A stretch of 35,907 nucleotides of DNA from an uncultured Bacilli bacterium (GCA_947631655.1 CANRME010000003.1:1-35907), one strand, 5' to 3'. Shown: positions 3,289 through 20,130, counted from the stretch's first letter. Numbers and translations are program-made. The notes: generated from the letters alone by a model not told the origin.

Positions 3289-3362
3289 AGGGGATTAGTT
3301 AAATGGTATAATAATGGTCTCCAAAACCACTGTTGGGAGTTCGATTCTCTCATCCCCTGCCA
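3289..3362 (+). tRNA. trnW: tRNA-Trp (CCA)
   Basis: Acceptor stem AGGGGAT/ATCCCCT, D-arm with TGGTA, anticodon loop CTCCAAA, T-loop GTTCGATT and an encoded 3' GCCA; 74 nt. Confidence 0.95.
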
Positions 3363-3382
3363 TGTGTTCATTACACGAACTC
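3337..3382. other. attL at the tRNA-Trp 3' end
   Basis: GAGTTCG-N13-CTGCCA-N13-CGAACTC, a symmetric dyad around the tRNA end. Confidence 0.75.
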
Positions 3383-3424
3383 GATTGCCATATTTAGATA
3401 TGGATTCGCAGTAAGTGTTCATAT

Positions 3425-3451
3425 AAAAAGGACTAGAAAATAGTCTTTTTT
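3425..3451 (+). terminator. Intrinsic terminator
   Basis: AAAAAGGACTA-gaaaa-TAGTCTTTTTT. Confidence 0.75.
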
Positions 3452-3826
3452 GTTTTAGTTTTTTATAGGAGATGATTAGTTCTAAATAACGATAAATAAT
3501 AAATAAAACTTTATATTTTTAGTCTTTGATTTGCTCGTCAATTTATAAGTATATATTTATAGTTATTATTATTTGGTTATTAGTCTTTTATTTATTAATA
3601 AAAGCTAATATATGGGGATATTTTACAAATTTTACAATATTATTGTTATATATTTTCTCAAAGCACTTAATAATCGGTGCCATTTTATAATAATTTTATT
3701 TAGTAAATCAAAGAATATTTGGCAATAACATAAAAGCACTAAACAAAAGGGACGTTTATATGAATTGATTATGATTTATTAGTAAAAAATAAATTATACA
3801 GAAAATAAAAAGATACATACGCACCT

Positions 3827-4060
3827 TTAATCAACATTATCAAATAATTGTCTTATATCTATTTCTAAAGCATCGGCAATTCTAGTTAGAGATACAATAG
3901 TAAAGCCTCTTTGCATTTTTTTACTCTCTATTTTAGAGATAAAATTCATTGTTAATCCAGCCCTATCGGCTAATTGTTGTTGAGTGAAATTCCTATCTTT
4001 TCTATATTTCTTTATATTATATCTAATAACATCAAAATAATAATTATCACTATGTTTCAT
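3827..4060 (-). CDS. XRE-family HTH regulator (C-protein-like size)
   Basis: IKKYRKDRNFTQQQLADRAGLTMNFISKIES...LTRIADALEI; SD AGGTGG. Confidence 0.9.
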   Translation of the reverse strand: MKHSDNYYFDVIRYNIKKYRKDRNFTQQQLADRAGLTMNFISKIESKKMQRGFTIVSLTRIADALEIDIRQLFDNVD

Positions 4061-4072
4061 ATTAGTACCACC

Positions 4073-4156
4073 TGTCCATAGTATTATTATCTTAAAAGTT
4101 TTTATACGGATATATGGACACGTTGTCCGTATTGTGATATAATCTTGATATGGACA
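4073..4156. promoter_or_regulatory. Divergent promoter region with five TAYGGAYA half-sites (putative XRE operators)
   Basis: Half-sites lie at 4073(-), 4105(+), 4113(+), 4124(-) and 4149(+). A TGGACA-17-TATAAT promoter spans 4115-4143. Confidence 0.65.
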
Positions 4157-4183
4157 AAGAGGTAATAGTGAGGTGAAAGAGGT

Positions 4184-4501
4184 ATGATGAATATGATATT
4201 ATCTATATTAGTAGTGGTTATTATAGCCATTGTTGCTATTGTATTTGCTGTTAAAAAGACGATACTTTATGTTGATAAAGAATACCGTAGTGCTGCTATA
4301 ATATCGTTCATATTCCCTATTGTAGGGTTGATAATCTATGCTGTTAATATAGGTTCCAACAAGAAATTAGCAAGAAGTTGTATAGCACCAGTTATAGCAG
4401 GCATGATAATTAGTGCAATAATAATCATAATGGTATTACTGATTCTTGGTGGCGTATATACCGGTGGCTCAGTACATACCAAAAATATTCCAATGAAATA
4501 A
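4184..4501 (+). CDS. Small membrane protein (about 3 TM helices)
   Basis: Three hydrophobic stretches, including SFIFPIVGLIIY; SD GAGGT. Confidence 0.75.
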   Translation: MMNMILSILVVVIIAIVAIVFAVKKTILYVDKEYRSAAIISFIFPIVGLIIYAVNIGSNKKLARSCIAPVIAGMIISAIIIIMVLLILGGVYTGGSVHTKNIPMK

Positions 4502-4525
4502 AAAAAGGCAAGAAATGTCTTTTTT
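4501..4525. terminator. Bidirectional terminator
   Basis: AAAAAAAGGCA-agaaa-TGTCTTTTTTT between convergent genes. Confidence 0.6.
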
Positions 4526-4571
4526 AATTTCTACAAGAAATTTACTTTGCGAATTAAGTTGATAAAGAGAA

Positions 4572-5534
4572 CTATTTTATAGAACTCTTTTTATTTTTGT
4601 TGTTGCGACTTTTTTGCTTTCTTTGATTTTGTCTCGATAAAGTGCATTCATATTCTAAACAATATTTTTGCCTAAATCCATTTCTTTTAAAAATATTATT
4701 ACAAGCTGGATTTTGACAGATTCCTATTGTTTCATCGTTGTTATCTCTTGATAGTTGCATTTTTAGCTCATATATACCTAATAATAGAGCATTATCAAAT
4801 ATCATTTTAGTTTCCCAACATTCATTATCATAATCAAATGTAGTATCAAATGTACAATAACCTTTGGTGCAATTATCAAGAAATTCTAAATTTTCACTTA
4901 TTTTTGTTGGAATATCGTGCTGTTTTGTAGTATCAATTATATATTTATATATTTTAGAGTATTTATTTGTATTATTTGCATATTGTTCTCTTAATAGAAA
5001 AGACTCATAAATTATATAGACAACTGTGAGAAAATATAAAATAATACATTCATTGTCAGATGTGGTATCGTTATCTTCAACAACTGAAACGAATCCATAC
5101 TTTTCAAAGAAACTAATTATTTCTTCTATAAAAATTGATAAATATTTATAATTGTTTCTATATAACAATAATAATATTACATTAAAATATACACTATAAT
5201 TGTCAGATTTAGTGCAATTAGCTGTTATAAAATCATCATCTATAATTTCATCATTTAGTTTTTTCCCCAAATTAAAAATATCTACAAAAACTTCATATGA
5301 ATTAATATTATTTTGTATTTCTTGTTTAGGAGCCATATTTTCATCTTTTTTATATTGATAATTATACTCTCCAATACTTAATATATCACCTTTTTTATGA
5401 TTAGATGTTGGATTAACTAGTGATAAGTCTTTTAAATCATAAGCGCCAATCATTAATAAATCTCGCCAACCTTGATTCATCTTTTTTATAGCGTCTTTAT
5501 CTATATTATTTTTTACTCTTAAATATGCTTTCAT
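4572..5534 (-). CDS. Protein with a C-terminal CGNR-like zinc finger
   Basis: CQNPAC...F......QKYC...C......RKQKSR followed by a basic tail. Confidence 0.65.
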   Translation of the reverse strand: MKAYLRVKNNIDKDAIKKMNQGWRDLLMIGAYDLKDLSLVNPTSNHKKGDILSIGEYNYQYKKDENMAPKQEIQNNINSYEVFVDIFNLGKKLNDEIIDDDFITANCTKSDNYSVYFNVILLLLYRNNYKYLSIFIEEIISFFEKYGFVSVVEDNDTTSDNECIILYFLTVVYIIYESFLLREQYANNTNKYSKIYKYIIDTTKQHDIPTKISENLEFLDNCTKGYCTFDTTFDYDNECWETKMIFDNALLLGIYELKMQLSRDNNDETIGICQNPACNNIFKRNGFRQKYCLEYECTLSRQNQRKQKSRNNKNKKSSIK

Positions 5535-5680
5535 ATATTTACCTTTTTAATGTCACAAGCATTTCACAAGTTATATGTAACATTCCTTTTCTAAATATTA
5601 TATGATGTCATTGTAATTATTTCAAGCGCGCATCTTATAATTACGTAAAATGAATTTAGTAATAATTGACTTGTACAGTA

Positions 5681-5811
5681 GATAAGAAAGGGAAAAACGT
5701 AAAAATCCTTAAAAAAATAAGGGATTTTAGCAATTATTATCGGCAATTATATGTTACCGTTATTAATACTACTTCATTTGCAATTATTACCGATAAGAAA
5801 GGAAAAGTAAA
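5681..5811. repeat. Iteron-like repeats upstream of the Rep-like gene
   Basis: GCAATTAT occurs at 5730, 5743 and 5780, and GATAAGAAAGG at 5681 and 5792. A hairpin lies at 5702-5728. Confidence 0.5.
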
Positions 5812-6315
5812 ATGGCAAAGTATTTAATAGATGATTACGGCGATTTAATAGGTGAATTTAATGATGATGATTCAATTCGTGTCTATAATCCATTGAATAC
5901 TAAAAGAAGACTTATAGAGAATAAATTATTTTATAAATTCTATAAAGATTCAATATTAATATTTGTGAATGGGCTTATTAGTAAACAAGTTACAATAACT
6001 TTGTTTAAATTAATTCGCTTATTAGAATTTGGCACAAATGAATTTGTTAATATTAATGGTTTGCCTGCAAGCTTAAATCAACTTGCTACTTTCTTCCATA
6101 TGAAAACTAAAACTTTCTTTAATCATATAAAAAAGCTTGAAGAACTAGAAATACTAAAGAAAGTAAAAAATGGGAGAAATAGGAATATTTTGATTAATCC
6201 TTATTTTATTGGATATGGCACTAATTGTACGGATGAATCTTTAAAAATTTTTAGCAAGACAATCTGGGCTAAACAATCAAAATATTCTAAAAATAAATTA
6301 AAGATTAAAAGCTAA
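5812..6315 (+). CDS. Winged-helix protein, RepL-like plasmid replication family
   Basis: SLNQLATFFHMKTKTFFNHIKKLEELEILKK...ILINPYFIGYG; SD AAAGGA. Confidence 0.55.
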   Translation: MAKYLIDDYGDLIGEFNDDDSIRVYNPLNTKRRLIENKLFYKFYKDSILIFVNGLISKQVTITLFKLIRLLEFGTNEFVNINGLPASLNQLATFFHMKTKTFFNHIKKLEELEILKKVKNGRNRNILINPYFIGYGTNCTDESLKIFSKTIWAKQSKYSKNKLKIKS

Positions 6316-6350
6316 TTTTTATGATTATTTTAGGGAAAGGAGGAAGTAAA

Positions 6351-6659
6351 ATGAGCAGGGAATACCCTTTTATAATGTTGATGAAAATCATTAGTAGTTT
6401 TAACTATAAAAGTGGTTATATCAAAAATTGGGATGATAACGAAGATATGGTAACAATTAACGAAATATGCCATATTGTAGGTATCAACACCAGCGATATT
6501 AATCATATTTTATCAATCTGGAGTTATTTTGACTTAGCAAGTGAATATAAGCAAAATAACAAAAGATACTTAAAAATATCTGATAAAGTTATTTCCAATA
6601 TTCAAAAAGGAAATATAATTAGATACGAATTAAAAAATACAAAAAGTAGACATTATTAA
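6351..6659 (+). CDS. Hypothetical protein, possibly a diverged winged helix
   Basis: The start is moved to ATG 6351 behind SD AGGAGG. TINEICHIVGINTSDINHIL looks HTH-like. Confidence 0.55.
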   Translation: MSREYPFIMLMKIISSFNYKSGYIKNWDDNEDMVTINEICHIVGINTSDINHILSIWSYFDLASEYKQNNKRYLKISDKVISNIQKGNIIRYELKNTKSRHY

Positions 6660-6735
6660 TTAACAGCATTTGCCATTTAAAATAGACAAAATAATAAAAA
6701 TGTGCTATTATAAATGTGTGAGGTGATAGGTTAAT

Positions 6736-7200
6736 ATGATTACTATAAGTGACAGATTAAAAGACTTAAGAATGAAAAATAAATTAAGTCAGAATGATTT
6801 GGCTTTGTCGCTAGGGATTAAAAGGCATACTATTAGCGCTTATGAAACTGGTAGTATAAAGCCCCCTATTGATAAGTTAATATTAATATCGAATTATTAT
6901 AATGTATCATTAGACTATCTATGTGGGATAACTAATAATCCTATAATTAATAGTTCTAAAATTGATGATTCTTTAGGATTTGATGTCGAAAGTATTGCAA
7001 AAATACAACAATTAAAACTAGCTAATAATATGCAGTTAATAATTAGTTTACTTAAATATGGAAGTATTGATTTGTTTAAATTGGCTAATAAATATTTAAG
7101 TACTAAATATGATAACGATACAAAGAAAAAAACAGATGAGTATGTTGTATTGGAAAAAATTAAGGATACTTTTGATGAATATAAAATAAAAAAAGATTGA
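6736..7200 (+). CDS. XRE-family repressor
   Basis: RLKDLRMKNKLSQNDLA...ISAYETG..KP....L...SNYYNVSLDYLCG; SD GAGGTG. Confidence 0.92.
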   Translation: MITISDRLKDLRMKNKLSQNDLALSLGIKRHTISAYETGSIKPPIDKLILISNYYNVSLDYLCGITNNPIINSSKIDDSLGFDVESIAKIQQLKLANNMQLIISLLKYGSIDLFKLANKYLSTKYDNDTKKKTDEYVVLEKIKDTFDEYKIKKD

Positions 7201-7266
7201 TAGCTACGGCAATAGTTATCAATCAAGAGTACACATAAAACGGTTACCCCACCAATTTATATGTGT
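7188..7266 (-). ncRNA. Candidate ~75-nt antisense RNA upstream of the recombinase operon
   Basis: A minus-strand TTGTCT-17-TATAAT promoter (7301-7273) and a minus-strand terminator (stem 7195-7224, T7 at 7188-7194). Confidence 0.45.
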
Positions 7267-7328
7267 ACTCCTATTATATAATAATTTAATTATTAAGACA
7301 ATTATTTGAAAAAAGGAGTGATAAAAAT

Positions 7329-7514
7329 ATGTTAAATGATATGCAAGTAAATGCGATTTCTAGTGTATTTAGTGCTGGAGATATTAAAGACTATGTAGAA
7401 AGAAATATATATGATTATGTATTATTTGAACAGAAAGATAATAATCCAAATTGTAATATATCAATGAGAATAGGTTTTTTTGGAACACTTTCTTTAATTG
7501 GGGGTGTTAGATAA
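7329..7514 (+). CDS. Small protein translationally coupled to the LSR (candidate directionality factor)
   Basis: Strong SD AAGGAGTG; TAATG stop/start overlap with the LSR. Confidence 0.65.
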   Translation: MLNDMQVNAISSVFSAGDIKDYVERNIYDYVLFEQKDNNPNCNISMRIGFFGTLSLIGGVR

Positions 7515-9058
7515 TGAATGCAGTAATTTATGCAAGATATAGTTCTCATAATCAAACAGAATGCTCTATTGAAGGACAATTAGAGGAATGTAGAAAATAT
7601 GCAGAACAAAATAATATAAATATTATTGGAGAATATATAGATAGGGCAAAATCTGGAACTAAAGATAATAGAGATAACTTTCTTAAAATGATTGAAGATA
7701 GTAAAAGAAAAACATTTGAGGGTGTTTTGGTGTATCAATTAGATAGATTCGCTAGAAATAAATATGATAGTGTAATATACAAAAAACAACTTAAGGACAG
7801 AGGTATAAGGGTATTATCAGCAAGAGAGAATATATCTCAAGATGCAAGTGGTATTCTTATGGAAAGTGTGCTTGAGGGAATGGCGGAATACTTTTCTGTG
7901 GAACTGGGGCAAAAAGTCAGAAGAGGTATGAAGTTAAATGCTGATTGCTGTTACTATAATGGTGGAACAATACCTTTGGGCTATAAATTGGAAGTAGTTA
8001 ATGATGATAGGTTTAATAATGGTATTAAAAAAGCGGTTAAAAAGAGGTATGTAATAGATGAAAATAAAGCACCAATAGTTAAGAAGATATTTGAAATGTA
8101 TGCAAACGACAATAAAATGAGTGAAATTATTAACTATTTAAATGGTTTAGATTTAAGAACAGCTTATAATAAATCATTTAATAAAAGTAGTATTAGAAGA
8201 ATATTAGAAAATAAAAAATATATAGGTATATACACATATCACGGGCAAGAAACAAAAGACTCTATACCTAGAATAATTGATGATGAATTGTTTTACAAAG
8301 TACAACAAGAATTAAGAAAAAATAGTCTTGCTCCAGCTAGAAGAAGAGCTAAGACAGAATATTTATTATCTGGGAAATTATATTGTGGATTGTGTAGAGA
8401 AAAAATGACTGGAAGTTCTGGGACTTCCGAAAATGGAAAGTTATATACTTATTATGCTTGTAAATTAGCTAACAAACATTTATGTGATATGGATTCTGTA
8501 AAGAAAGAGGATATAGAAGATATTGTTTTAAAATCCTGTCAAGATATACTTACAAAAGACAATATTAATTTAATAGCCAAAAAGATTGTTGAGTATGCCA
8601 ATAACGAAAAAAATACTATTGAATATAAACAGTTAAGTAAAGCATTAAAAGATAATGAAAGAAGAAAGATTAACATTGTTAAAGCAATTACAGAATGCGA
8701 AGACAATACTACAAGACAAATTTTATTTGATGAGTTATCTAAAATCCAAAATGCTCTTGATGAAATTAATCAGTCTTTATTAATAGAAAAAGCTAAGCAT
8801 TTAAATCTCGGAATAACAGAAGTAAAGTATTTCTTAAATAATCTAAGAAAAGGAAATATAAATAAGTTTGAGTACCAAAAGATATTGATAAATACATTAG
8901 TAAATAAAGTGTACTTACATAAAGATAAGGCAATTATATTATTCAATATCAATAATCATGTAGAAGAGGTAAAAATATCTCTTCTTAATGATATTGAAAG
9001 TTCGCTTTTTAATGCAGTAGCTCTGCCACTAAGTAATGAAATGGCTTCGAAAAGTTAA
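7514..9058 (+). CDS. Large serine recombinase (resolvase, recombinase, Zn-ribbon and coiled-coil domains)
   Basis: AVIYARYSS (catalytic Ser), LDRFAR, PLGY, YLLSGKLYCGLC...YYAC......C. Confidence 0.95.
   Translation: MNAVIYARYSSHNQTECSIEGQLEECRKYAEQNNINIIGEYIDRAKSGTKDNRDNFLKMIEDSKRKTFEGVLVYQLDRFARNKYDSVIYKKQLKDRGIRVLSARENISQDASGILMESVLEGMAEYFSVELGQKVRRGMKLNADCCYYNGGTIPLGYKLEVVNDDRFNNGIKKAVKKRYVIDENKAPIVKKIFEMYANDNKMSEIINYLNGLDLRTAYNKSFNKSSIRRILENKKYIGIYTYHGQETKDSIPRIIDDELFYKVQQELRKNSLAPARRRAKTEYLLSGKLYCGLCREKMTGSSGTSENGKLYTYYACKLANKHLCDMDSVKKEDIEDIVLKSCQDILTKDNINLIAKKIVEYANNEKNTIEYKQLSKALKDNERRKINIVKAITECEDNTTRQILFDELSKIQNALDEINQSLLIEKAKHLNLGITEVKYFLNNLRKGNINKFEYQKILINTLVNKVYLHKDKAIILFNINNHVEEVKISLLNDIESSLFNAVALPLSNEMASKS
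8999..9053. other. attR of tier 1 / attL of tier 2, inside the LSR 3' end
   Basis: AGTTCG-N18-CTGCCA, then an imperfect CGAAAA 19 nt downstream. It shares AGTTCG and CTGCCA with the tRNA end. Confidence 0.7.
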
Positions 9059-9191
9059 AAAAGAATTTTAGGAGATAATATTCTTTAGCTTGAAAGGAGC
9101 TGTTTTTTAATGATAAATTAAACGATTTTATAAAGAACAATTTTAAGAATAAAAAAGATAATTTATCAAACGAAAACAAGGATGAGTGATT

Positions 9192-10526
9192 TCATCCTTT
9201 ATTTTTTTCGTTAAGTTTACTAAATAAGAAATTTTTATCTAACATAAAGCAAACTTTTGTAACATCATTTTGAAAAAAGTTTGTATAAGCCTCATCGCCT
9301 CTTTTACCCTTAGGAGCAACCTCTAGTATTTGACCATCAAATCTTTTTGGCTGAGGTAGCAATGATATATCATGTTTTTCAATGGCCTTTTTAACTTGAT
9401 TATATGTTCTTCCAAATAATTCAATATCTTCGTCGTTAAATGTTATTTGTCTTATACCCTCTAAAATTCTTTCTCCATTTTTTGAATTTTTACTTCCTTT
9501 ATAACAAATGACAATTAATGTAACTTCTTCAAAATAATTTTTCCAATAAGAGTCTTCCCAAGAATCTTTAAATTCAGTTAATACTAAATTTCTAAAGGAC
9601 ATTCTTTCAAGTGGATAGCCAAAATCGTTTACAGGTAAATTTTTAATAATATAATTAACTTTTTGAAATAATGGATTCTTAGTAGGTAGCTCTTTATCTT
9701 TTCCAATTAACTCATCAGAAATCATTTTACTTAATTGTTTTGGGACTGGTTCTGCTAATTTTTTATGTGTTAGATATTCAAAAATATCATTTTGTTTTTT
9801 TCCAATAAAATTTTGTATTTGAGCGAATACATATTCTTCAATTGTTTTATATTCAATGTTATCTACATCTAAAATTAAATGTGCATTTCTTAAAATACCT
9901 GTCATATAAGAATTTTTTAGTGAGTATGCTCGTGGCATTGCTAATTCAGTAGAAAATGGTTGAGTAGTTCTATCTTTTCCTGTAGATCCTTTGGGACATG
10001 CTCCCAAATAAGAAGTGTCTCCTTCAGATAGCAAATGAGCCTTTCCTTCTATTACTTTTTGTTTGATTAGTTCAAAATCATTTTTAATTATTAAAGAATC
10101 ACCAGTCATATCATAAAGTTGAAAATCAGTAATTACAAAATCCTTATAATCTTTTTCTCTATCATATTCATACCAAATAATTAATATTTTTTTACTTTTA
10201 AATAATAAATGACTAAAATCAAATTCTTCATGAACAATACTATTATAATCAATCTTTCCTAAAACTAATCTTTCTTTAGCAGAAATTGTTCCATTTTTAT
10301 TTTTTATATATCCACTAACTTTTAACTCTACGCCAAGATTAGCAAAATCAGCTTCAGCTTTGTTATTATTAGGATATTTATAAAAACCAGTTTCAATAAT
10401 TTTTCCCAAATTACCCTTATCTTTAGAGTTTGTCGTTAAAGTATTATTTATATCAAAATCTTTAAATGTTTTACCTCTAATTTGTTTGGTATATTCAAGA
10501 AGTTCATCAATTGTTTTGAAATTCAT
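9192..10526 (-). CDS. Sau3AI/MutH-family type II restriction endonuclease
   Basis: KGNLGKIIE...F.Y..NN..EADF...GVELKV...AKERLVL...HLLSEGDTSYLGACPKG...RAYSLKNSYM, followed by a second MutH-like domain. Confidence 0.9.
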   Translation of the reverse strand: MNFKTIDELLEYTKQIRGKTFKDFDINNTLTTNSKDKGNLGKIIETGFYKYPNNNKAEADFANLGVELKVSGYIKNKNGTISAKERLVLGKIDYNSIVHEEFDFSHLLFKSKKILIIWYEYDREKDYKDFVITDFQLYDMTGDSLIIKNDFELIKQKVIEGKAHLLSEGDTSYLGACPKGSTGKDRTTQPFSTELAMPRAYSLKNSYMTGILRNAHLILDVDNIEYKTIEEYVFAQIQNFIGKKQNDIFEYLTHKKLAEPVPKQLSKMISDELIGKDKELPTKNPLFQKVNYIIKNLPVNDFGYPLERMSFRNLVLTEFKDSWEDSYWKNYFEEVTLIVICYKGSKNSKNGERILEGIRQITFNDEDIELFGRTYNQVKKAIEKHDISLLPQPKRFDGQILEVAPKGKRGDEAYTNFFQNDVTKVCFMLDKNFLFSKLNEKNKG

Positions 10527-10536
10527 TTTTTACCTC

Positions 10537-12225
10537 CTAGATTTTGTTAAGCATAATTTTATATTTTTTTGCTACTCTAGCAGAAGTATTAATATTTTCT
10601 TCTATTTTTTCAACTAAATAACTAATTTCTTCTAATGTGGCCAGAGAAAAAATCTCCAATCTTTGCCTTGCTCTTGATGCGGCAACATAAAAATTATTAA
10701 GATATTCTTCTTTCTCAATTTTGAATGGATTGAAATCTACTATAATAATAATATTAGATTCCAAACCTTTAAATTTTTTTGATGTTGTAAATAAAATTTT
10801 GTCTTTTTCAAATTGACTTGATAATGCAATTTTTCTTTTAATATTTTCTATGTTAATTATTGAATTATCTTCGCTTTCCATTGTTAAAATAGTAATATCT
10901 TCATTATCATAACCATCTTTCGTATAACTATTAATTTTTTCAATGATACTTTTTAATAGTTCGTCTTTTCTATTAGAATAATTTAATATTGGCATTATTC
11001 CTGAAATACAAAACTCATTTGATGTACTTTTACTACTAACAATACTGTTCATAGTATTAAGAATTTTTTGAGTATTTCTACAATTCTTTGTTAATTTTAA
11101 TTTGCAATCAAATAATTTTAATATGTTTGGCAAATTTTTATAATATAAAAGTTGGTTTTTATCATAAAATATGAATAATCTAATATTATTTGTTTGGCAA
11201 AATTTTACCAAATGCTCTAGTATTTTATCATAAATATCTTGAGCTTCATCAATAATAATATATTTATATTCCAATTGTTTTAAATCAATTTCTTTAATAG
11301 CAAGTAACAATTGAGAATCAGCTAACAAATTTTTCACAGAATATTTTCCTACAAAAGAGTGTATATTGTAATAATCAATATTTTCATAATTACATTTTTC
11401 AATTAAATGTTTATTAAGAAACTTGTTGAAACATAAAAATAATACTTTTCCGTTTTTTGCAAACCTTTTTGCTTGTTCTACAGCAACGAACGTTTTTCCA
11501 GTTCCAGCTCCGCCTTCAATAGCAACAGAATTTTGATCTTCAATAAAATCTAATACTTTTTTTTGCTCATTGGTAAGTTGTAAAAATACATAGTCAGCTT
11601 CATTTTTTACATTAGACGAAGAGGGAATTAAATCAAAATTTGGCATTAAAATATTTTCTATTACTTTTATTCCATTTTTTTGTAATCTGGTAAAACGTAG
11701 TCCATTATAATAATTAAATACTTTTATTAAGCTTAATTCTGGCGTTTTCAAATCTTCTTCTGATAATATTTGATTAATGCTATAGTTTAACGGTAATGTA
11801 AATTTTTTTATTTCATCTTTTGAAATAGATGGGAACCAGACAGCTTTGTCAATAAAACACCTATCACCATTTAGTAGTTCACCATCAATCTCTTCTATAA
11901 GCTTATATTTGCTTCTATCAGCTTGTTTAAAAGGATCTTTCATTTTATATTCTTCATTTGTGTCTAATCTTTTTTGATACCAATCACCATTTTCACATCT
12001 AATTTCTCCGGATTTAACTTCAATTATTAGAATTCCATAGATTGGATTAAAAATTGCAAAATCAGCTTCTCCCCAAGTAATTCTTCCGTTGTTATTCCTT
12101 TTTTGCCATGTTAATGAATAATAAATATTCCAAGAATTAGACAAGTTTTTTAAAGCCTGAAATATTTTATATTCACCTAAACTATTATGGAAATCATCAG
12201 ATATTTCTGGATAAAAATGTGCCAT
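10537..12225 (-). CDS. NERD nuclease fused to an SF1 (UvrD-like) helicase
   Basis: NERD motifs EADF...IEVKSG...PFKQA; helicase motifs GGAGTGKT, IIDEAQD, NCRNT, KGLE and YVAASRAR. Confidence 0.88.
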   Translation of the reverse strand: MAHFYPEISDDFHNSLGEYKIFQALKNLSNSWNIYYSLTWQKRNNNGRITWGEADFAIFNPIYGILIIEVKSGEIRCENGDWYQKRLDTNEEYKMKDPFKQADRSKYKLIEEIDGELLNGDRCFIDKAVWFPSISKDEIKKFTLPLNYSINQILSEEDLKTPELSLIKVFNYYNGLRFTRLQKNGIKVIENILMPNFDLIPSSSNVKNEADYVFLQLTNEQKKVLDFIEDQNSVAIEGGAGTGKTFVAVEQAKRFAKNGKVLFLCFNKFLNKHLIEKCNYENIDYYNIHSFVGKYSVKNLLADSQLLLAIKEIDLKQLEYKYIIIDEAQDIYDKILEHLVKFCQTNNIRLFIFYDKNQLLYYKNLPNILKLFDCKLKLTKNCRNTQKILNTMNSIVSSKSTSNEFCISGIMPILNYSNRKDELLKSIIEKINSYTKDGYDNEDITILTMESEDNSIINIENIKRKIALSSQFEKDKILFTTSKKFKGLESNIIIIVDFNPFKIEKEEYLNNFYVAASRARQRLEIFSLATLEEISYLVEKIEENINTSARVAKKYKIMLNKI

Positions 12226-12227
12226 AA

Positions 12228-15200
12228 TTACACCTCATTTGGAATCAGTTCTAGATATTTTTCAACTTCATCTATTGCTATTATTTTCCAATCTTTTTCA
12301 GAGCATTTATTTCTTACTTCAAATCCACAGTACTCTGGAGAAATAATTAAATTTTCATTTACATATATAAATAGTGCCTTTATAGTAATACCTGAAATAT
12401 TTATATCAGTATATGCAAAATCAGCTATTTTTTTGTTTTCTCTATCTAGTAAATTACAATAATATTTATACTTTTCTTCTGTAACTAAATTTTCGCTAAT
12501 TCTCTTCCAACTATCATAATCTTCTAAACTATATGTTTCACAAGCATTAACATCAATATATTTTTCTAATTTTTCAGGATGTTTTATTATTTTATTTTCA
12601 ACTGCAGCAATGTTATCTATTTCATTTTCTATATCTTCTCCTAAAAAATACCTTTCAACAAAATTCCATCTTTCGTTATTTTGGCTATTGTTATAATGTC
12701 TAAAAAAATAATCTAATATCTTGACTGATCTATAATGTTTCTCTTTAGCCATTTCAACATAATTATTTTTATAGATAACCCTGTCTTCCACAATATTTTT
12801 AATTTTATCTGGTGCGTTTAAACGAATAAATATTTCTGGACTATCACCGCCCACAATTTCGTATGAAACTAAGTCTAAAATAGATAAAAGTTTTAATGCG
12901 TTAGAATCTGTTACATTGTCAGCATAAAATTGTTCATATTCTGAATTATTTATATACCTTATATTTTTTATTAAAGATGCCTTGCTTAAAATTTGTGTTG
13001 CCAATGTTCTTAATTTTCCATTACTAATTTGATATTTTTCAAATTCATTATCTTCTCTTCTTACAATACATTCATAGTTCAAATCTATGACATCAAAATA
13101 CGAATTTGCAATTATTTCAGCTTTAGAACTCTTATATCTTGAAGATATTTTATTTTTAAACTCTTCTTTGGTGAAAAAATTTCTATCAAACGAAGTTAAT
13201 GTATCAGTTAAATAATTAATCTCATCCATAGCCTTTTGATAAACTTCTGAAAGCAATCCTGATTTCGCTTTCATAGATAGCTTTACTCTATAGAAAATAT
13301 CATTTTTAATATCTCCCATAACATCAACACTATTTTTGTTAAAAAATTTATATTTAAATGATGCAAATGACATTTCTGAACCATATATATTTTCCCAAAT
13401 ACTCTTTAAATCAATTTCATAAATTGGACCCGGATCTGTTACAAGGCATCCACCAACAGCCTCACGGTTTCTTCCTTCTGCAATTTTAGTAAAATATTTT
13501 CCATATTTACTATTTTCAATTTTTAAAACATTTTCTTCTGATACTGAGGCATAAGCTTTTGTAAACATTGTACCTGGTCTAGAAATTAATACATATATTT
13601 TATAAGTTTCATAAAAATCTTTTTCAAGCATTAGTAAAACTATTTTTAATTTGTTTTCCAAATCATCTTGATTGGTTTTTCCAAATACACCATCAAACAT
13701 TTTGGGATTAATCATAAAATTTCGATGCTTTTTATTTAGAAATGTATCATAAATTATAGATAAACATTTCTTTACATGATATTGTTTGATTTGCGACATA
13801 CCAAATAAAGTATTAACATATTTCATGTCACCATTAAAATAGTCAACAATAGCTTTTCCATTAATGCTTTTATCTCTAGCAGCTCTTCCTATTTCTTGAA
13901 CATAATCACTTAGTCCACCAGTTACAGCATAGTGAAAGACATTATGAATATCTGAAATATCTATTCCCATTCCAAAAGCTTTTGTTGCAATCATTACATT
14001 TGCTTTTCCTTCGGTAAAGTCATCCATTGCTTGTACTTTTTCTTCAGCTTCTTCACCACTTCCGGTATATATTCTAATATCATTTTTAAAACATTTAAAA
14101 CTACTAAATTCTTTATCACCATTATAAATTTGGTGTGCAATCGAACTATATGGACAGTAAACTATTGTTTTATCATTTTTATCAATCCACCCATTTATTC
14201 TCTCACCTAGTTTTTGTATTTTCATATCTTTATATTGATCATAAGATTTGTCTGTGTAATTATTTATCTCAAAAGTGATATTTTCTCTTTTTGCTGAACC
14301 TATCTTTTTGATTGGATCATTCATAAACAAACTAATAATTGTTTCTGAAACGGTATCATCTTTTCCACCATTTACCGCAGTAGCTGTACAAGCAAAAATT
14401 GGAAAATCATGATGCCTTTTGCCTTGACCGAATTTATTTTGCATTGTTCTAAGTCTATTTATGTATGTACCTAAATACCAATAATCAGGTCTAAAGCCAA
14501 CGCCCCAAGTTGTAACTATATGAGCTTCATCTATGATTATAAGTCCGATTTCTCTTTCTCCTATTAATGAATCGATTGAATGTGATAGAAGTGTTTCAGG
14601 GCTAACATATAAAATGTCTATTTTTCCTTCTTTGACATTATTAATTATTTCTTCTCTTTGAACAATTGTTGCAATATCAGAATTTAAATATGCATGTTTT
14701 TTATATCCAGATTTGGTTAATATATCATATTGATTTTGCATTAATCCTTTTAAAGGTTCAATAATAATTATTAGTTTGTTATATTTTTCACTTAAATAAA
14801 TTGAAGGCAATTGAAAGATTAATGATTTCCCTGCACCTGTAGACGCAGTCATAAATATATCTCTATATCTTTTTCCCGCATATGCTTTTTCAGATTCACT
14901 AACTATGTATTCCATTATTTCAGCTTGAGAAATATCTTCCATTTCATCTGATAAATCTGGATCTTTATAAAATGATAATTTTCTAAAATTAAAATCTGTT
15001 TTACCAGTAAGTTTTGTACCTATTTTTTTTAGTTCTTCTCTAATAGTACTTGTTATGGGATATTCGCCAGAATATTTGTAAAGGATATTAATATTTAAGG
15101 ACTTCAATAATGCTTTCATTGATTCGAATATCATATTTGATATTTCGGTATTACAAACTTTTTTATAACCAATGGTTTTATAATTATTAGTAATGATATT

Positions 15201-15773
15201 TTGATAGTGTTCTAAATATTTTTCGAGATTATCGTCTATATCAATTAAATATTCACAATTATCTGTTAAATTAATATCGATGTTATTGTCATAAAAATGA
15301 ATAATTCTATCTATATTTGCATTATTTGGAAACTCATAATTGTAATAAGTCACATAATATTGCCCGTTTACCAAATAGATATTTGAATAAATGTTGTCTA
15401 AACTTTGAACTTTTAAATTGACATTCATATTTTCTTCTTCTTTATATTTTAAATACTCTAAGAACGTATTTTCTTCTATTTCACAATATATAGGATATAT
15501 TCCAGGAAAAATATTATTACATACTATTTTTATTCTTATTCTTCCAGTCTTGACAAAAATATAAAGTTGTTCATGAATTAATTCAAATTCTTCATAAGTA
15601 ATCCAAAATTTTTCACCACGTTTATTATAAATATATCCACCTAGTTCAAATGCATAATCATTAGTTAAATTTTTATAGTCGATTTTAAAATCTAAATCTT
15701 TTTCACTTAGTGGCAAATAATCTAATTTTGATAAAAAATCCTTATTAAACCCTTTATAAACATATAAATCCAT
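12228..15773 (-). CDS. Large RecQ-like SF2 (DEAH) helicase with long N- and C-terminal extensions
   Basis: STGAGKS, YVSPE, IDEAH..TTWG..FRPDY, TAT, ATKAFGMGID and YVQEIGRAARD. The start is placed at ATG 15773 behind SD AAGGAAG. Confidence 0.88.
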   Translation of the reverse strand: MDLYVYKGFNKDFLSKLDYLPLSEKDLDFKIDYKNLTNDYAFELGGYIYNKRGEKFWITYEEFELIHEQLYIFVKTGRIRIKIVCNNIFPGIYPIYCEIEENTFLEYLKYKEEENMNVNLKVQSLDNIYSNIYLVNGQYYVTYYNYEFPNNANIDRIIHFYDNNIDINLTDNCEYLIDIDDNLEKYLEHYQNIITNNYKTIGYKKVCNTEISNMIFESMKALLKSLNINILYKYSGEYPITSTIREELKKIGTKLTGKTDFNFRKLSFYKDPDLSDEMEDISQAEIMEYIVSESEKAYAGKRYRDIFMTASTGAGKSLIFQLPSIYLSEKYNKLIIIIEPLKGLMQNQYDILTKSGYKKHAYLNSDIATIVQREEIINNVKEGKIDILYVSPETLLSHSIDSLIGEREIGLIIIDEAHIVTTWGVGFRPDYWYLGTYINRLRTMQNKFGQGKRHHDFPIFACTATAVNGGKDDTVSETIISLFMNDPIKKIGSAKRENITFEINNYTDKSYDQYKDMKIQKLGERINGWIDKNDKTIVYCPYSSIAHQIYNGDKEFSSFKCFKNDIRIYTGSGEEAEEKVQAMDDFTEGKANVMIATKAFGMGIDISDIHNVFHYAVTGGLSDYVQEIGRAARDKSINGKAIVDYFNGDMKYVNTLFGMSQIKQYHVKKCLSIIYDTFLNKKHRNFMINPKMFDGVFGKTNQDDLENKLKIVLLMLEKDFYETYKIYVLISRPGTMFTKAYASVSEENVLKIENSKYGKYFTKIAEGRNREAVGGCLVTDPGPIYEIDLKSIWENIYGSEMSFASFKYKFFNKNSVDVMGDIKNDIFYRVKLSMKAKSGLLSEVYQKAMDEINYLTDTLTSFDRNFFTKEEFKNKISSRYKSSKAEIIANSYFDVIDLNYECIVRREDNEFEKYQISNGKLRTLATQILSKASLIKNIRYINNSEYEQFYADNVTDSNALKLLSILDLVSYEIVGGDSPEIFIRLNAPDKIKNIVEDRVIYKNNYVEMAKEKHYRSVKILDYFFRHYNNSQNNERWNFVERYFLGEDIENEIDNIAAVENKIIKHPEKLEKYIDVNACETYSLEDYDSWKRISENLVTEEKYKYYCNLLDRENKKIADFAYTDINISGITIKALFIYVNENLIISPEYCGFEVRNKCSEKDWKIIAIDEVEKYLELIPNEV

Positions 15774-15881
15774 AAATACACTTCCTTTTTGATCTTGTTT
15801 TTTATTTAAAAATTTTATACAATAATAGTAATGAAGGTTAATCTTTAACATCATTTATTATATAATAAATATCGATAAAAG

Positions 15882-15910
15882 TTGATCTTTTTCTTCAAAT
15901 AAATTATAAT
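15882..15910 (+). promoter_or_regulatory. SigA promoter of the methyltransferase, with GATC in the -35 box
   Basis: TTGATC-17-TATAAT. Confidence 0.7.
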
Positions 15911-15951
15911 ATATTTAGGGAATATAAACAAATAGTCAGGAGGCTTAAGTT

Positions 15952-17190
15952 ATGAAAAAAACTATGGTTGAATTATTTGCTGGTGTTGGTGGTTTCCGTT
16001 GTGGATTAAATCATGTGGAATTAAAAGATGGTAAGACTATAGAAAATGGCAATTGGAAATGTCTTTGGGCAAATCAGTGGGAACCAGCTACTAAGTCGCA
16101 AGAAGCATATGATTGCTATGCTAAGAGATTTGGTGCTGAAGATGTATCAAATGTAGATATATTTGAAGTTGATAAACATGATATACCAGACCATACACTA
16201 TTAGTTGGTGGATTCCCTTGTCAGGACTATTCTGTTGCTCAAACTCTTTCAAATAGTAAAGGAATAGAAGGTAAAAAAGGAGTTCTTTGGTGGGCTATAG
16301 AAGAAACACTAGCTATTAAAAAGCCACCATTTGTACTATTAGAAAATGTTGATAGATTACTATTGTCTCCTGCTAAACAAAGAGGAAGAGATTTTGGAAT
16401 GATTTTAAGAAGTTTCTATGAAAATGGTTATGATGTAGAATGGAGGGTAATCAATGCCGGAGAATATGGTCTCCCACAAAAACGTAGAAGAACTTATATT
16501 TTTGCTTATCATAAATCAACAAAGTATTATAAAAAAATGCAAAAAATTTCTGACTATGATGTGATTTTTTCTGATGGTATGTTTGTACAACAATTTCCTA
16601 TTAAACAAAGTTATGAAGAAATAACTGAATCTAATATTTCAGAATATAAAGATTTAGTAGAAGTAAGCAATTTATTTAAGTGTAATTTTTATAATGCAGG
16701 AATTATGAAAAATGGAGGTATTTATACAGTTAAAGTAAAAGCAGATTATAATTTGGTTTATCCACTAAGAAATATTCGTGAAGAAGAGCCAGTAGATGAA
16801 AAATATTTCTTAAGTAAAGAACAGATAGAGAAATTTGCATTCTTAAAGGGTAGTAAAAAAATCCCTAGAGTTAAGCCAAATGGTGAACCATACTTTTACT
16901 CAGAAGGAGCTATGCCATTCCCTGATAATTTAGATGCACCAGCTAGGACAATGCTTACTAGCGAAAGTGGAATTAGTAGAACAACCCATGTTATTGAGGA
17001 CTTTAAAACAAAAAAAACAAGACTTCTTACTCCAAGAGAATGTGAAAGAATAAATGGGTTCCCAGATGATTGGACTAATACAGGAATGTCTGATAAAAGA
17101 AGATATTTTATGATGGGAAATGCTTTAGTTGTTGGGGTAATTAAAAAAATTGGTGTTGAATTAGAGAAAATAATAGATGATGAAAATTAA
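15952..17190 (+). CDS. DNA (cytosine-5)-methyltransferase, M.Sau3AI-like (probable GATC target)
   Basis: ELFAGVGG, GGFPCQDYS, ENV, QKRRR and MGNAL, plus subfamily-specific WANQWEP and GIEGKKGVLWW; SD AGGAGG. Confidence 0.93.
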   Translation: MKKTMVELFAGVGGFRCGLNHVELKDGKTIENGNWKCLWANQWEPATKSQEAYDCYAKRFGAEDVSNVDIFEVDKHDIPDHTLLVGGFPCQDYSVAQTLSNSKGIEGKKGVLWWAIEETLAIKKPPFVLLENVDRLLLSPAKQRGRDFGMILRSFYENGYDVEWRVINAGEYGLPQKRRRTYIFAYHKSTKYYKKMQKISDYDVIFSDGMFVQQFPIKQSYEEITESNISEYKDLVEVSNLFKCNFYNAGIMKNGGIYTVKVKADYNLVYPLRNIREEEPVDEKYFLSKEQIEKFAFLKGSKKIPRVKPNGEPYFYSEGAMPFPDNLDAPARTMLTSESGISRTTHVIEDFKTKKTRLLTPRECERINGFPDDWTNTGMSDKRRYFMMGNALVVGVIKKIGVELEKIIDDEN

Positions 17191-17215
17191 TTATTATGTT
17201 ATAATTAAAATAACT

Positions 17216-17247
17216 GAGATATCATTAAAATTATGATATCTTTTTTT
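17216..17247 (+). terminator. Intrinsic terminator after the methyltransferase
   Basis: GAGATATCAT-taaaatt-ATGATATCTTTTTTT. Confidence 0.7.
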
Positions 17248-17282
17248 AGTAATACTACTTTTTAAAAGTAATGTTGTCATGA

Positions 17283-18566
17283 ATGAGAGGTTTTTTTATG
17301 AGATTATTTAATGGTAATCAAATTGATGACTATATGAGAGAAATATGGGAGAAAATAAGAGAAGATATTAACAATATACCTGATCAAGATATTTTGTCAC
17401 TCGATATCAACGATTTTGTTTCTTATTATTATGACAAATACCATGTTGAACCAATAACTCTTTTAAAAGAAGAAATTAATTCATCGATTGAAGAAACAAA
17501 AATAAAAAAAGATAATCCATTTTATAGAGATTTTGGTTATGGACTAGAGCAAAAATATTTTCTTGTCGATGGTTATAGAATTTATTATGATATTCCTTTT
17601 AATGGCGAATCCGATTTACTTTTTTTACAACCAACTATGAGGATATTAAAAAAATTTGAAATAGATAATATTAAAAATAGAAATAGTATGGATTATTTGC
17701 CTTTTATTTGCTTTTCAGTAGAAATAGAGGCACAAAAATTAGATGAAAGTGATAATCCACAACAATTAATAGATGATAACTTTAAGAGAGAATTTAGTAG
17801 TTATGAATCAATGATTTCAAATGTTAATGTTTCAATAAATAACTTTAATTCTAACCTAAAAAATAAAGTTAATGAGTTATTAACTGAAAAGTATAATAAA
17901 AGTAGTAAATTTTCTTCTTTAATGAGTAAAATAAATATTCCTTTAAAAAGGAATGATAAAGCTCCAAATGTAACTCCTTTAACATTAAATATAAAGAAAG
18001 AACCTATTAAATATCCAGAAAAAAAGAATGTTAGTATTGACTATTGCGTTTCAGAAGATGACTATATAAACATCAAAGAAATTATCAGTCAATCCTGTAT
18101 TTCTTTTGAAAGCACTTCTCTAACTTTTTGTAAATTAAGTGAAGAAGAACTAAGAGATGTAATTCTTTCTAACTTAAATACTCATTATGATAATAAAGCA
18201 ACTGGAGAAACATTTAGTAAAGTAGGAAAAACTGACATTAGGATTCAGTTTGATAATAAGGCTGCTTATATTGCAGAATGTAAAATATGGCATGGTATTA
18301 GTGAGTTTAAAAAGGCAGTTTCTCAATTATTTAGTTATACTAGGTGGAGAGATGTCAAAACTTCACTAATCATATTCAATAAGGATGTTAAAAACTTTTC
18401 TACAGTTTTATCTAAAATAGATAATGAATTACATACTAACGAACTGTGCATTAATGTTCAAAACATTGAAAAAAATTGTTGGCAATGTACTTTTAAAAAA
18501 TATAGTGATTGTGATGAATTAATTCAATTAAATATTCTTGTATGTGATTTATTTGCTGATAATTGA
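17283..18566 (+). CDS. Hypothetical protein with a C-terminal PD-(D/E)xK-like nuclease domain
   Basis: EEELRD..L..L.......ATGETF...GKTDI.I......IAECKIW. The true start may be ATG 17298 behind GAGG. Confidence 0.6.
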   Translation: MRGFFMRLFNGNQIDDYMREIWEKIREDINNIPDQDILSLDINDFVSYYYDKYHVEPITLLKEEINSSIEETKIKKDNPFYRDFGYGLEQKYFLVDGYRIYYDIPFNGESDLLFLQPTMRILKKFEIDNIKNRNSMDYLPFICFSVEIEAQKLDESDNPQQLIDDNFKREFSSYESMISNVNVSINNFNSNLKNKVNELLTEKYNKSSKFSSLMSKINIPLKRNDKAPNVTPLTLNIKKEPIKYPEKKNVSIDYCVSEDDYINIKEIISQSCISFESTSLTFCKLSEEELRDVILSNLNTHYDNKATGETFSKVGKTDIRIQFDNKAAYIAECKIWHGISEFKKAVSQLFSYTRWRDVKTSLIIFNKDVKNFSTVLSKIDNELHTNELCINVQNIEKNCWQCTFKKYSDCDELIQLNILVCDLFADN

Positions 18567-18579
18567 TTGAAAACAGGAG

Positions 18580-20130
18580 ATGATTAACTTGGACGACAAA
18601 AAATTAGAATTGATTTTAAAACATTTTATAGAGTTTGAAGAATTAGATTTTTCTCCAAAACAAAAATATTTAGATTTGTATAGTGATTATGATGAGAAAT
18701 TAAAAATGATTTTTGTTTACTTTCACCAAAGTTTAAATAGTTTGCTTGAATATATGAATAGCCGTGGTGCAGGTGCTCACTATACAGCAAATGAAAGTCG
18801 TGAACTAATATATTTAATTGATAAAATTAGAGAATTAAAAATGATTTTAGAAAAAACAAATTATTCTTTTGCTATAGATGATACATATGAAGAGTGGATG
18901 AATAACTGCGACAGTTTTTTATCACAATCAGGTGGAAGTGAAATACCTAGTGATTATAAAAGAGTTATTTTGAAAAATTATGATAAGATTTTTATTTTAA
19001 CAAATCAATCAAACACTAGTAATATTTCTAATAAAATAAAGTATACTTTGAAAGGTACAGGTGCTTTTGCAAAGGTATACTCTTATAACGAACCTCTATC
19101 AGGTAAAAAATTTGCTCTAAAAAGATTAAACAAAGACATTATCGGAAAAGAATTAGATAGATTTAAACTAGAATTTGAAAAGATGAATCAAATTAACAAT
19201 CCATATATTTTAAAAGCATATTCTTATGATGATAAAACTAATAGTTACATAATGGAATATTGTGACTGTACATTAAAAAAATTTATAGATGAGAACAACA
19301 ATAAACAATATATGGATGAAAAATATAGAAAAAATATTGCACTTCAATTTTTAAGAGGATTAAAATATTTACATTCCAAGGACTTATTACATAGAGATTT
19401 GAGTTTAAATAACGTTTTAATAAAACAATATGATGATCAATTTATCGTTGTTAAAATAGCAGATTTTGGTTTAATAAAGGATCTTAATTTGGATTTGACA
19501 AGTACTGATTCTGAAATAAGAGGAACAATTATTGATGATACTTTAACAAGTTTTAAAGATTATAATAAAAAAAATGAGATATATGCTATTGGTGTTATTT
19601 TATGGTTCATCTTTACAGGTAAACATAACTTGTCTCAAATAGATAATTCTAAAATAGGTAATATTGTAAAAAAATGTATTGATAGGGATCATAGTAAGAG
19701 ATATGATAACGTTGATGAAATTATAAAAGATGTTATTGATATTAACCATGATATACCTAATCAATTACCAAAAAAAGAATTAGGTTTAAAAACAATTGCT
19801 TCATTTTCGCAAATGACGGGTTTAGAATATGGAATTGATAAATATGGATTTGATTTTATTCGTGCCATGGTGGAAGATACTATTAATAATCAATTAATTT
19901 ATACACATGATTTGGTTGGGGAAAGATTTCAAACAACAGATGGTAAGTTTATTATTGAATTATCAAAAATACCAAATAGAGAAAAAATATATATTAAAGA
20001 TTCCTTTAATAAATTATTGACAGATAAGTATATTAAATCTTTAAATTCAGAAAACTCTCTTTTTGAATTAACAAAAAAAGGATACGAAATTTATGATTTA
20101 TTTAAAAAAAATGGATTTAAGTATTCATAG
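18580..20130 (+). CDS. Hanks-type Ser/Thr kinase with an Abi-associated-type N-terminal domain
   Basis: GTGAFAKV, ALKR, HRDLSLNN and ADFG. The N-terminus reads HYTANESREL...FLSQSGGSEIP. Confidence 0.88.
   Translation: MINLDDKKLELILKHFIEFEELDFSPKQKYLDLYSDYDEKLKMIFVYFHQSLNSLLEYMNSRGAGAHYTANESRELIYLIDKIRELKMILEKTNYSFAIDDTYEEWMNNCDSFLSQSGGSEIPSDYKRVILKNYDKIFILTNQSNTSNISNKIKYTLKGTGAFAKVYSYNEPLSGKKFALKRLNKDIIGKELDRFKLEFEKMNQINNPYILKAYSYDDKTNSYIMEYCDCTLKKFIDENNNKQYMDEKYRKNIALQFLRGLKYLHSKDLLHRDLSLNNVLIKQYDDQFIVVKIADFGLIKDLNLDLTSTDSEIRGTIIDDTLTSFKDYNKKNEIYAIGVILWFIFTGKHNLSQIDNSKIGNIVKKCIDRDHSKRYDNVDEIIKDVIDINHDIPNQLPKKELGLKTIASFSQMTGLEYGIDKYGFDFIRAMVEDTINNQLIYTHDLVGERFQTTDGKFIIELSKIPNREKIYIKDSFNKLLTDKYIKSLNSENSLFELTKKGYEIYDLFKKNGFKYS

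Follow-up and report, generated by a model that had tools for sequence, protein, structure and literature searches.

The locus described here has its closest known relatives in the Sau3AI restriction-modification (R-M) system and in several defence systems that combine a helicase with a nuclease. It lies at 9192-17190 in a DNA stretch of 35,907 nucleotides (nt) from an uncultured Bacilli bacterium (GCA_947631655.1 CANRME010000003.1:1-35907), the whole of which we call the window, and holds a Sau3AI-type endonuclease gene (R), a cytosine methyltransferase gene (M) and, between them, two helicase genes, helA and helB. Sau3AI R-M is a type II system with GATC as its site and 5-methylcytosine (m5C) as its modification, and in its family R and M directly adjoin. 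In Hachiman (HamAB), Gabija (GajAB) and type III Druantia (DruHE) a helicase and a nuclease that act on DNA are encoded together; abstracts on such nuclease-NTPase systems report protein-protein complexes, and forked DNA as the trigger of type III Druantia. In Nhi and AbiO, a nuclease and a superfamily 1 (SF1) helicase share one polypeptide. Two catalogued candidates are closer in sequence. RTasNERD-Hel is given as cluster 485, beside UG34 reverse transcriptases (PMC9226505). C3a193 comes from a survey of genes beside type III CRISPR loci, which lists it as a “possible alternative Cas3”, a type III accessory candidate, with Thebr_0949 (PMC6546367).

Compared with these systems, the four genes are most likely a mosaic. 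The locus probably consists of two autonomous modules, a Sau3AI-type R-M unit and a helA-helB cassette (helAB), brought together in a serine-recombinase mobile element. The R-M part is routine, and the cassette is a further type of nuclease-helicase. In terms of layout (Table 1), open reading frames (ORFs) and motifs are as a preliminary description of the sequence had them: helA, helB and R follow one another on the minus strand with gaps of 2 nt (helA/helB) and 10 nt (helB/R), the Shine-Dalgarno motifs GAGGTG and GGAGG overlap the 3' ends of the upstream genes at both junctions, and M, a C5 methyltransferase gene, is divergent from the other three. The hairpin at the end of R is the sole terminator-like site in 8800-17500. 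R and M stand about 5.4 kilobases (kb) apart, with helA and helB in between, so that the direct adjacency of the Sau3AI family is absent from the window.

Table 1. Features of the four-gene locus and of its flanks in the window. SF2, superfamily 2; aa, amino acids; HTH, helix-turn-helix.
Feature	Position	Strand	Basis
R, Sau3AI-family type II restriction endonuclease, 444 aa, last operon gene	9192..10526	-	NCBIfam, Pfam, PDB, alignment
helB, NERD nuclease domain and SF1 (UvrD-like) helicase, 562 aa	10537..12225	-	Pfam, PADLOC, alignment
helA, large SF2 helicase with RecQ-like core, 1208 aa as listed	12228..15854	-	Pfam, PADLOC, AlphaFold2
M, C5 cytosine DNA methyltransferase, 412 aa	15952..17190	+	Pfam, PADLOC, control loci
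Divergent control region between helA (from 15773) and M, 178 nt	15774..15951		spacer alignment, promoter-like sites
Terminator-like hairpin (bidirectional) that overlaps the stop codon of R and precedes the convergent recombinase gene	9178..9199		
Large serine recombinase (integrase)	7514..9058	+	Pfam Resolvase, Recombinase, Zn_ribbon_recom; phrog_95 integrase 1.9e-105
PDC-S54-like protein	17283-18566	+	PADLOC PDC-S54 1.3e-104
Ser/Thr kinase	18580-20130	+	PADLOC mad6 1.2e-37, Stk2 8.4e-29
tRNA-Trp	3289-3362		
CI-like HTH repressor	6736-7200		

The arrangement can be read from the helA-M spacer. This spacer aligns along its length with the R-M spacer of L163, a plain M/R locus (124/171 positions, 73% identity), and is identical at 121/171 positions to the R-M spacer of L020. 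The alignment score is 70, against a mean of -11.8 (standard deviation 6.3, maximum 10) for 500 shuffles. Since the match takes in the ribosome-binding site that serves R in plain systems, together with two GATC-bearing boxes, helA starts where R starts in those systems and R has been pushed behind helB. The cassette thus sits exactly at R's starting point. In plain systems, the promoter, leader and ribosome-binding site ahead of this point serve R; here they come before helA, and R would therefore be transcribed as the third gene of a helA-helB-R operon. The control region has promoter-like sites for both M and helA, and GATC at 15791 and 15884. The first of these lies within the helA leader, and TTGATC forms the -35 element of the M promoter-like site at 15882; the third GATC box of the L163 and L020 spacers is mutated in the window. 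The repeated boxes possibly reflect methylation-sensitive control of the R-M genes.

Comparison of whole units points in the same direction. L020 (helA, helB, M, R) and L163, which belongs to a genome of the window's own family, share an M/R unit with 87% nucleotide identity over 2799 base pairs. Their homology ends at both gene ends, and helAB adjoins the unit in L020 only. As for the window, the best figure for its R is 65% identity, to the R of L174 (a simple divergent M/R pair from another genome of the window's family), compared with 32-36% for the R of four loci with helA (L020, L021, L023 and L092) and 31-34% for that of L020, L021 and L163. Its M is 71-74% identical to the M of these last three. 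Because R and M have different nearest relatives, the locus is most likely a product of recombination and not a co-evolved four-gene unit. In addition, a 15.9-kb contig from the sequencing run X9 matches the window only in M and the spacer (15787-17195; 59 differences in 1409 nt), the rest of it being unlike 9100-17300. It seems that the M module can move about without the helA of the window.

Each module also occurs independently of the other. Sau3AI-family genes are common in the class, with matches in 49 of 400 genomes at E<=1e-20 (27 above the family cut-off). As a control set we used 28 loci with a Sau3AI-type R, all from genomes of the window's class, with up to about 10 kb fetched on each side. 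A C5 methylase adjoins R in all 28, and the M of the window is 39-74% identical to it in every case. None of the 28 has helA within the fetched flanks; one has a helicase-only helB-like match about 8 kb from R.

The pair was followed in a census of 86 helA loci (80 metagenome contigs, 5 genome loci and the window), built with a simple ORF caller and blastp clustering. In 24 of them helB lies directly downstream of helA, and in 20 of these 24 the two genes are on the same strand with a gap of -8 to +15 nt. The order is repeated in three of five full-length relatives on viral contigs. Total flank reaches 4 kb or more in 16 of the 23 helAB loci other than the window; two of these 16 carry a Sau3AI-type R and 14 do not. 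A FastTree phylogeny was built from 76 helA proteins, all those with 900 aa or more, which left out ten shorter ones (L023 included). A single clade of 22 rows holds most of the helA linked to helB (19 of the rows), and four more are placed elsewhere in the tree. The clustering of the 86 loci gave no conserved gene downstream of helB besides the pair.

The occurrence of one R-M unit with and without helAB, of the pair without R-M and of R-M without helicases, together with the spacer homology, supports a helicase pair nested in an R-M locus. This was one of the two readings offered in the preliminary description. The other, in which the helicases would work for the MutH-fold nuclease within a single ATP-dependent system, gained no positive support from these comparisons. 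As for co-occurrence of the four genes, the helicases do keep together, and their adjacency to this R-M is a trait of one small clade.

The neighbours of the pair are a mixture of defence and mobile-element genes. We scanned 62 of the 69 neighbouring proteins of the other helAB loci, leaving out seven from L020 and L021. They include DpnII cassettes in L027 and L031, helicase-type restriction-like genes (ResIII, PsyrT and type IV restriction endonuclease models), integrase-core and plasmid-recombination (Mob_Pre) proteins, and TnpV; in L026, local clustering showed Eco47II with a C5 methylase. In L020 a Cro/C1-type HTH protein (172 aa; L020:80-598) lies 11 nt upstream of helA, and it is also found in L037. 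Where no R promoter precedes the cassette, this protein may act as its regulator. Two unusual proteins were not used as evidence: P0121, a singleton of 1359 aa, joins helA 28-955 to a helB-like part that lacks the N-terminal quarter, possibly through deletion or assembly error, and P0124 (1735 aa) has a helB-like N-terminal part followed by an unrelated SF2 helicase. The idea that helAB stands in for a missing AddAB was dropped, as the genome has an AddA-like gene.

In terms of the individual proteins, R scores 335.9 bits against NCBIfam NF040973 (restrict_Sau3AI; cut-off 300), with residues 5-437 on positions 3-473 of 475. It matches Pfam MutH at 2.4e-30 and the solved Sau3AI chain, PDB 4pxg, at 4.7e-40, in agreement with the preliminary assignment as a Sau3AI-like endonuclease. 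The MutH-like D...E-x-K motif of its N-terminal domain (D60/E67/K69) is invariant in an alignment of 26 sequences, and it aligns with the motifs of MutH and of 4pxg. M matches Pfam C-5 DNA_methylase at 3e-63 and PADLOC MTase_II PDLC03329 at 1.7e-163. The likeness to Sau3AI therefore covers the family score, the 4pxg alignment, the catalytic motif and the C5-family methylase. Unlike in Sau3AI, two helicase genes separate R from M, and R is third in a helicase operon, apparently with no promoter of its own. R and M presumably recognise GATC, where M would methylate the cytosine. GATC is found 964 times in the window's genome against 2863 expected, and this observed/expected ratio of 0.34 is the lowest of the 16 palindromic tetramers (the next, CATG, has 0.61), which fits long exposure to GATC restriction.

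The helB product combines a Pfam NERD domain (6.2e-12) with AAA_19 and UvrD_C_2, which bears out its earlier description as a NERD-SF1 helicase. The residues E53/D55/E69/K71, the Walker A motif G241-T245 and D326-E327-x-Q329 are invariant in 21 homologues. Its best full-length match is PADLOC RTasNERD-Hel (8.3e-55, residues 1-527 on positions 1-511 of 519). The helicase part matches Nhi (6e-14) and AbiO (3.2e-16) over residues 217-525 only, the NERD part being unmatched, and GajB models cover just parts of the protein (best 4.1e-17, residues 314-441). NERD is the only nuclease domain recognised by sequence in the pair. This domain and both helicases have intact, conserved catalytic motifs.

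The helA product has Pfam DEAD and Helicase_C, with a RecQ-like core at about residues 330-690 and invariant Walker A and DEAH motifs in the alignment of homologues. The earlier label of RecQ-like helicase holds for this core. Against TIGR01389 (recQ), helA reaches 179.2 bits for a cut-off of 640.2, over the core only, which sets it apart from housekeeping RecQ. PADLOC C3a193, by contrast, is matched over almost its whole length (2.1e-155, residues 84-1074 on positions 55-982 of 983). The listed start also needs revision. Homologues begin with MxLxVYKGF at M28 (window 15773), AAGGAAG lies about 8 nt upstream of this codon, and a promoter-like site at 15841..15812 falls downstream of the ATG at 15854. 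For these reasons, the true start is most likely M28, which would make the protein about 1181 aa long and the listed ORF 27 codons too long.

AlphaFold2 models of helA 1-325 and 690-1208 have a predicted local distance difference test (pLDDT) of 88 and 87.5. Foldseek against the PDB returned no match at E<=0.001 for either region. A wide structural search returned only a generic P-loop-kinase-like alpha/beta match for 1-325 (best Z 7.4), and winged-helix matches (best Z 8.7) and RecQL4 (Z 7.3) for 690-1208. No nuclease fold is among the listed structural matches of the two regions, which does not exclude one. From these models, helA is predicted to have an N-terminal alpha/beta region, the RecQ-like core and a C-terminal region with a winged-helix-like fold. 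The family counts at least 2320 proteins at E<=0.001 (among 7997 scored). Its distribution is sporadic: helA is present in 5 of 61 related genomes (E<=1e-20), and among 401 genomes of the window's taxonomic family, 7 have it at E<=1e-100. A single-protein scan of genome contigs with one query gave one distant locus only, and a protein atlas gave just clusters named “helicase-related protein”.

Seven ORFs around the locus were scanned with PADLOC, with matches taken at E<=0.01, and none of the models for named multi-gene systems accounts for helA and helB together. The preliminary description had placed the genes outside DISARM, BREX, Druantia, Gabija and Hachiman, and the PADLOC models agree with it on each. 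For DISARM, Druantia, BREX and Dpd there are core-only helicase matches to helA (DpdF 1.7e-57, BrxHI 3.5e-8, DruE 1.6e-5) and no other components among the PADLOC matches. No GajA was matched by PADLOC, and there is neither a HamA or HamB model in that scan nor a DUF1837 in Pfam. Hachiman, Gabija and type III Druantia resemble the pair in their logic; in helAB, unlike in them, both genes encode helicases. Nhi and AbiO resemble helB in build, but helB has a conserved partner with which it would be translationally coupled, and a full-length Nhi match is not seen. RTasNERD-Hel is like helB over its full length, with NERD and a C-terminal helicase. The conserved partner is different, being the helA helicase here, and Pfam gave no reverse transcriptase domain for the ORFs scanned between 4572 and 25829. 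The name of C3a193 is its authors' guess and its function is putative; no Cas model matched the seven scanned ORFs, and the kinase weakly matched the accessory-candidate model C3a189. We found no paper on a pair of RecQ-like and NERD-helicase genes, or on one of sigma-like and helicase genes, the supplements of PMC6546367 and PMC10059834, which may bear on this, being outside the search. In a Listeria study, type II R-M is reported on the flanks of genes given no name beyond “DNA helicase” in 20 of 30 cases (PMC10059834).

From these comparisons we propose a two-layer mode of action. The R-M unit would act in the usual way, with M methylating cytosine, presumably in GATC, and R cutting unmethylated sites. 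The cassette would be a defence system whose two proteins act together, a probable nuclease-helicase module against phage, with the NERD nuclease of helB as its effector and both motors serving to locate or process foreign DNA. With R on the helicase transcript of the window, both layers would at the least be switched on together. If its defence role is confirmed, helAB adds a two-helicase nuclease module to the known nuclease-helicase systems.

Several observations weigh against two autonomous modules. In the nearest helA clade, a Sau3AI-type R-M adjoins helA in all four members with readable flanks (window, L020, L021 and L023), and this linkage is held at 54-61% helA identity and in three gene orders. 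It could come from selection for linkage; common descent of one element family could also account for it, and a serine recombinase stands beside the cluster in the window and in L023. A Sau3AI-type R and M also follow a distant helA of the sigma type on one strand (L092). Given the 10-nt gap, the R of the window appears to have no promoter of its own, and its expression would hang on the helicase operon. Moreover, R-M genes repeatedly form one contiguous, co-oriented run with helA relatives: WYL regulator, hsdM, hsdS, helA and hsdR in L066 (12-11592), with a 13-nt gap before hsdR; hsdM, hsdS, hsdR and helA in L058; a sigma-like protein, helA, hsdM, hsdS and hsdR in L075; helA after hsdM in L097; and hsdS, hsdR, a sigma-like protein and helA on the Enterococcus faecium plasmid pW142. 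The census does not cover the contexts of the closest helA relatives, about 34 clusters (P0001-P0034, 51-88% identity). Lastly, the anti-phage role of helAB is a prediction from sequence. Taken with these points, a functional coupling of helAB and Sau3AI-type R-M in this clade is possible but doubtful.

The partner of helA is not always helB. In 24 of the 86 loci, helB is replaced by a sigma-70-like protein of 344-380 aa with regions 2, 3 and 4 (cluster c2), which lies directly upstream of helA. Examples are L074:3859-4893 and L092:3253-4398 and the plasmid loci L100 and L102; plasmids of E. faecium and L. plantarum show this arrangement. An AIPR protein lies upstream of helA in five loci, and L073:4594-7389 is also listed among the loci for these two kinds of partner. 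Some sigma-type relatives are near a Csx1/Csm6-like gene. The picture looks like one helicase with interchangeable partners (NERD-helicase, sigma-70-like or AIPR). A large family with three such partners, and named in no defence catalogue or paper that we found, could be an undescribed modular defence class that plugs into R-M operons. It would here be wired behind a Sau3AI-type R promoter, either to make GATC restriction and ATP-driven unwinding and degradation one machine or to let the helicases guard the R-M. We consider this broad reading unlikely.

Its first form, in which helA, helB and R of this clade are one machine, is decidedly unlikely. R would cut or nick unmethylated GATC, the helicases would load there and the NERD nuclease would degrade the DNA processively; alternatively, the helicases would deliver or activate R. 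MutH followed by UvrD in mismatch repair and the motor subunits of Type I and Type III systems are parallels. The close spacing of the operon with its one terminator-like site, the R promoter and leader that are kept and now drive all three genes, the adjacency that all four readable loci of the nearest clade keep across three gene orders, and the single-strand helA-R-M order of L092 are what one machine would lead us to expect. The nearest relative of the window's R, however, is in a plain M/R pair, which gives no sign of co-adaptation, and the M/R unit of L020 is found in L163 without helAB. In L020 and L021, M is convergent on helB and R divergent from M, so that R is outside the helicase operon. 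The control loci without helA and the 14 helAB loci without a Sau3AI-type R are further points against it.

The second form, that of a guard or back-up, is very unlikely. Modules of the helA family in R-M operons would fire when a phage disables the R-M, or they would be co-selected for layered defence. The precedent is PrrC, an anticodon nuclease inside the EcoprrI Type I R-M locus. Like it, helA of L066 and helAB of the window (between control region and R) are second defence genes lodged within an R-M operon, and the helA position between hsdS and hsdR in L066 is that of prrC in the classic prr locus. The places directly after hsdR (L058), directly before hsdM (L075), after hsdM (L097) and after hsdR on pW142 would suit a guard as well. 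Unlike PrrC, helA and helB are helicases, and there is no evidence here that the R-M silences helAB. Most helA loci have no adjacent R-M, R-M genes outnumber all other neighbours in any defence island, and the adjacency counts are raw, with no background rate. No domain that would sense R-M status was recognised in helA, where the fold searches gave the generic alpha/beta and winged-helix matches only. The cassette behind the R promoter and the relative between hsdS and hsdR offer a case for setting hitch-hiking against functional coupling of defence genes nested in R-M operons.

That helA and helB serve the mobile element (in replication, recombination or transfer) or DNA repair, and not defence, is highly improbable: helAB has a large serine recombinase nearby in the window, L023, L030, L038, L104 and L106, some relatives are on contigs filed as viral and the PHROG matches of the pair are a generic “DNA helicase”, but the partners of helA are typical of defence (AIPR, R-M genes, Csx1/Csm6 neighbours), its distribution is sporadic, the neighbour scans gave no replication-initiator or transfer genes beside the pair, and helA matches a family first flagged in the survey beside type III CRISPR loci (PMC6546367).

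Two autonomous modules in one mobile element also agree with the setting. The neighbours of helA are defence or mobile-element genes, which supports a place among defence cargo, and a serine-recombinase element probably carries the cluster. In the window, the serine recombinase, the CI-like repressor and tRNA-Trp on one side and the PDC-S54-like gene and kinase on the other mark a mobile element with defence cargo. The first three (3289-9058) suggest the edge of an integrated element. On the side of M, the PDC-S54-like gene is followed after 13 nt by the Ser/Thr kinase gene, forming a second candidate defence pair.

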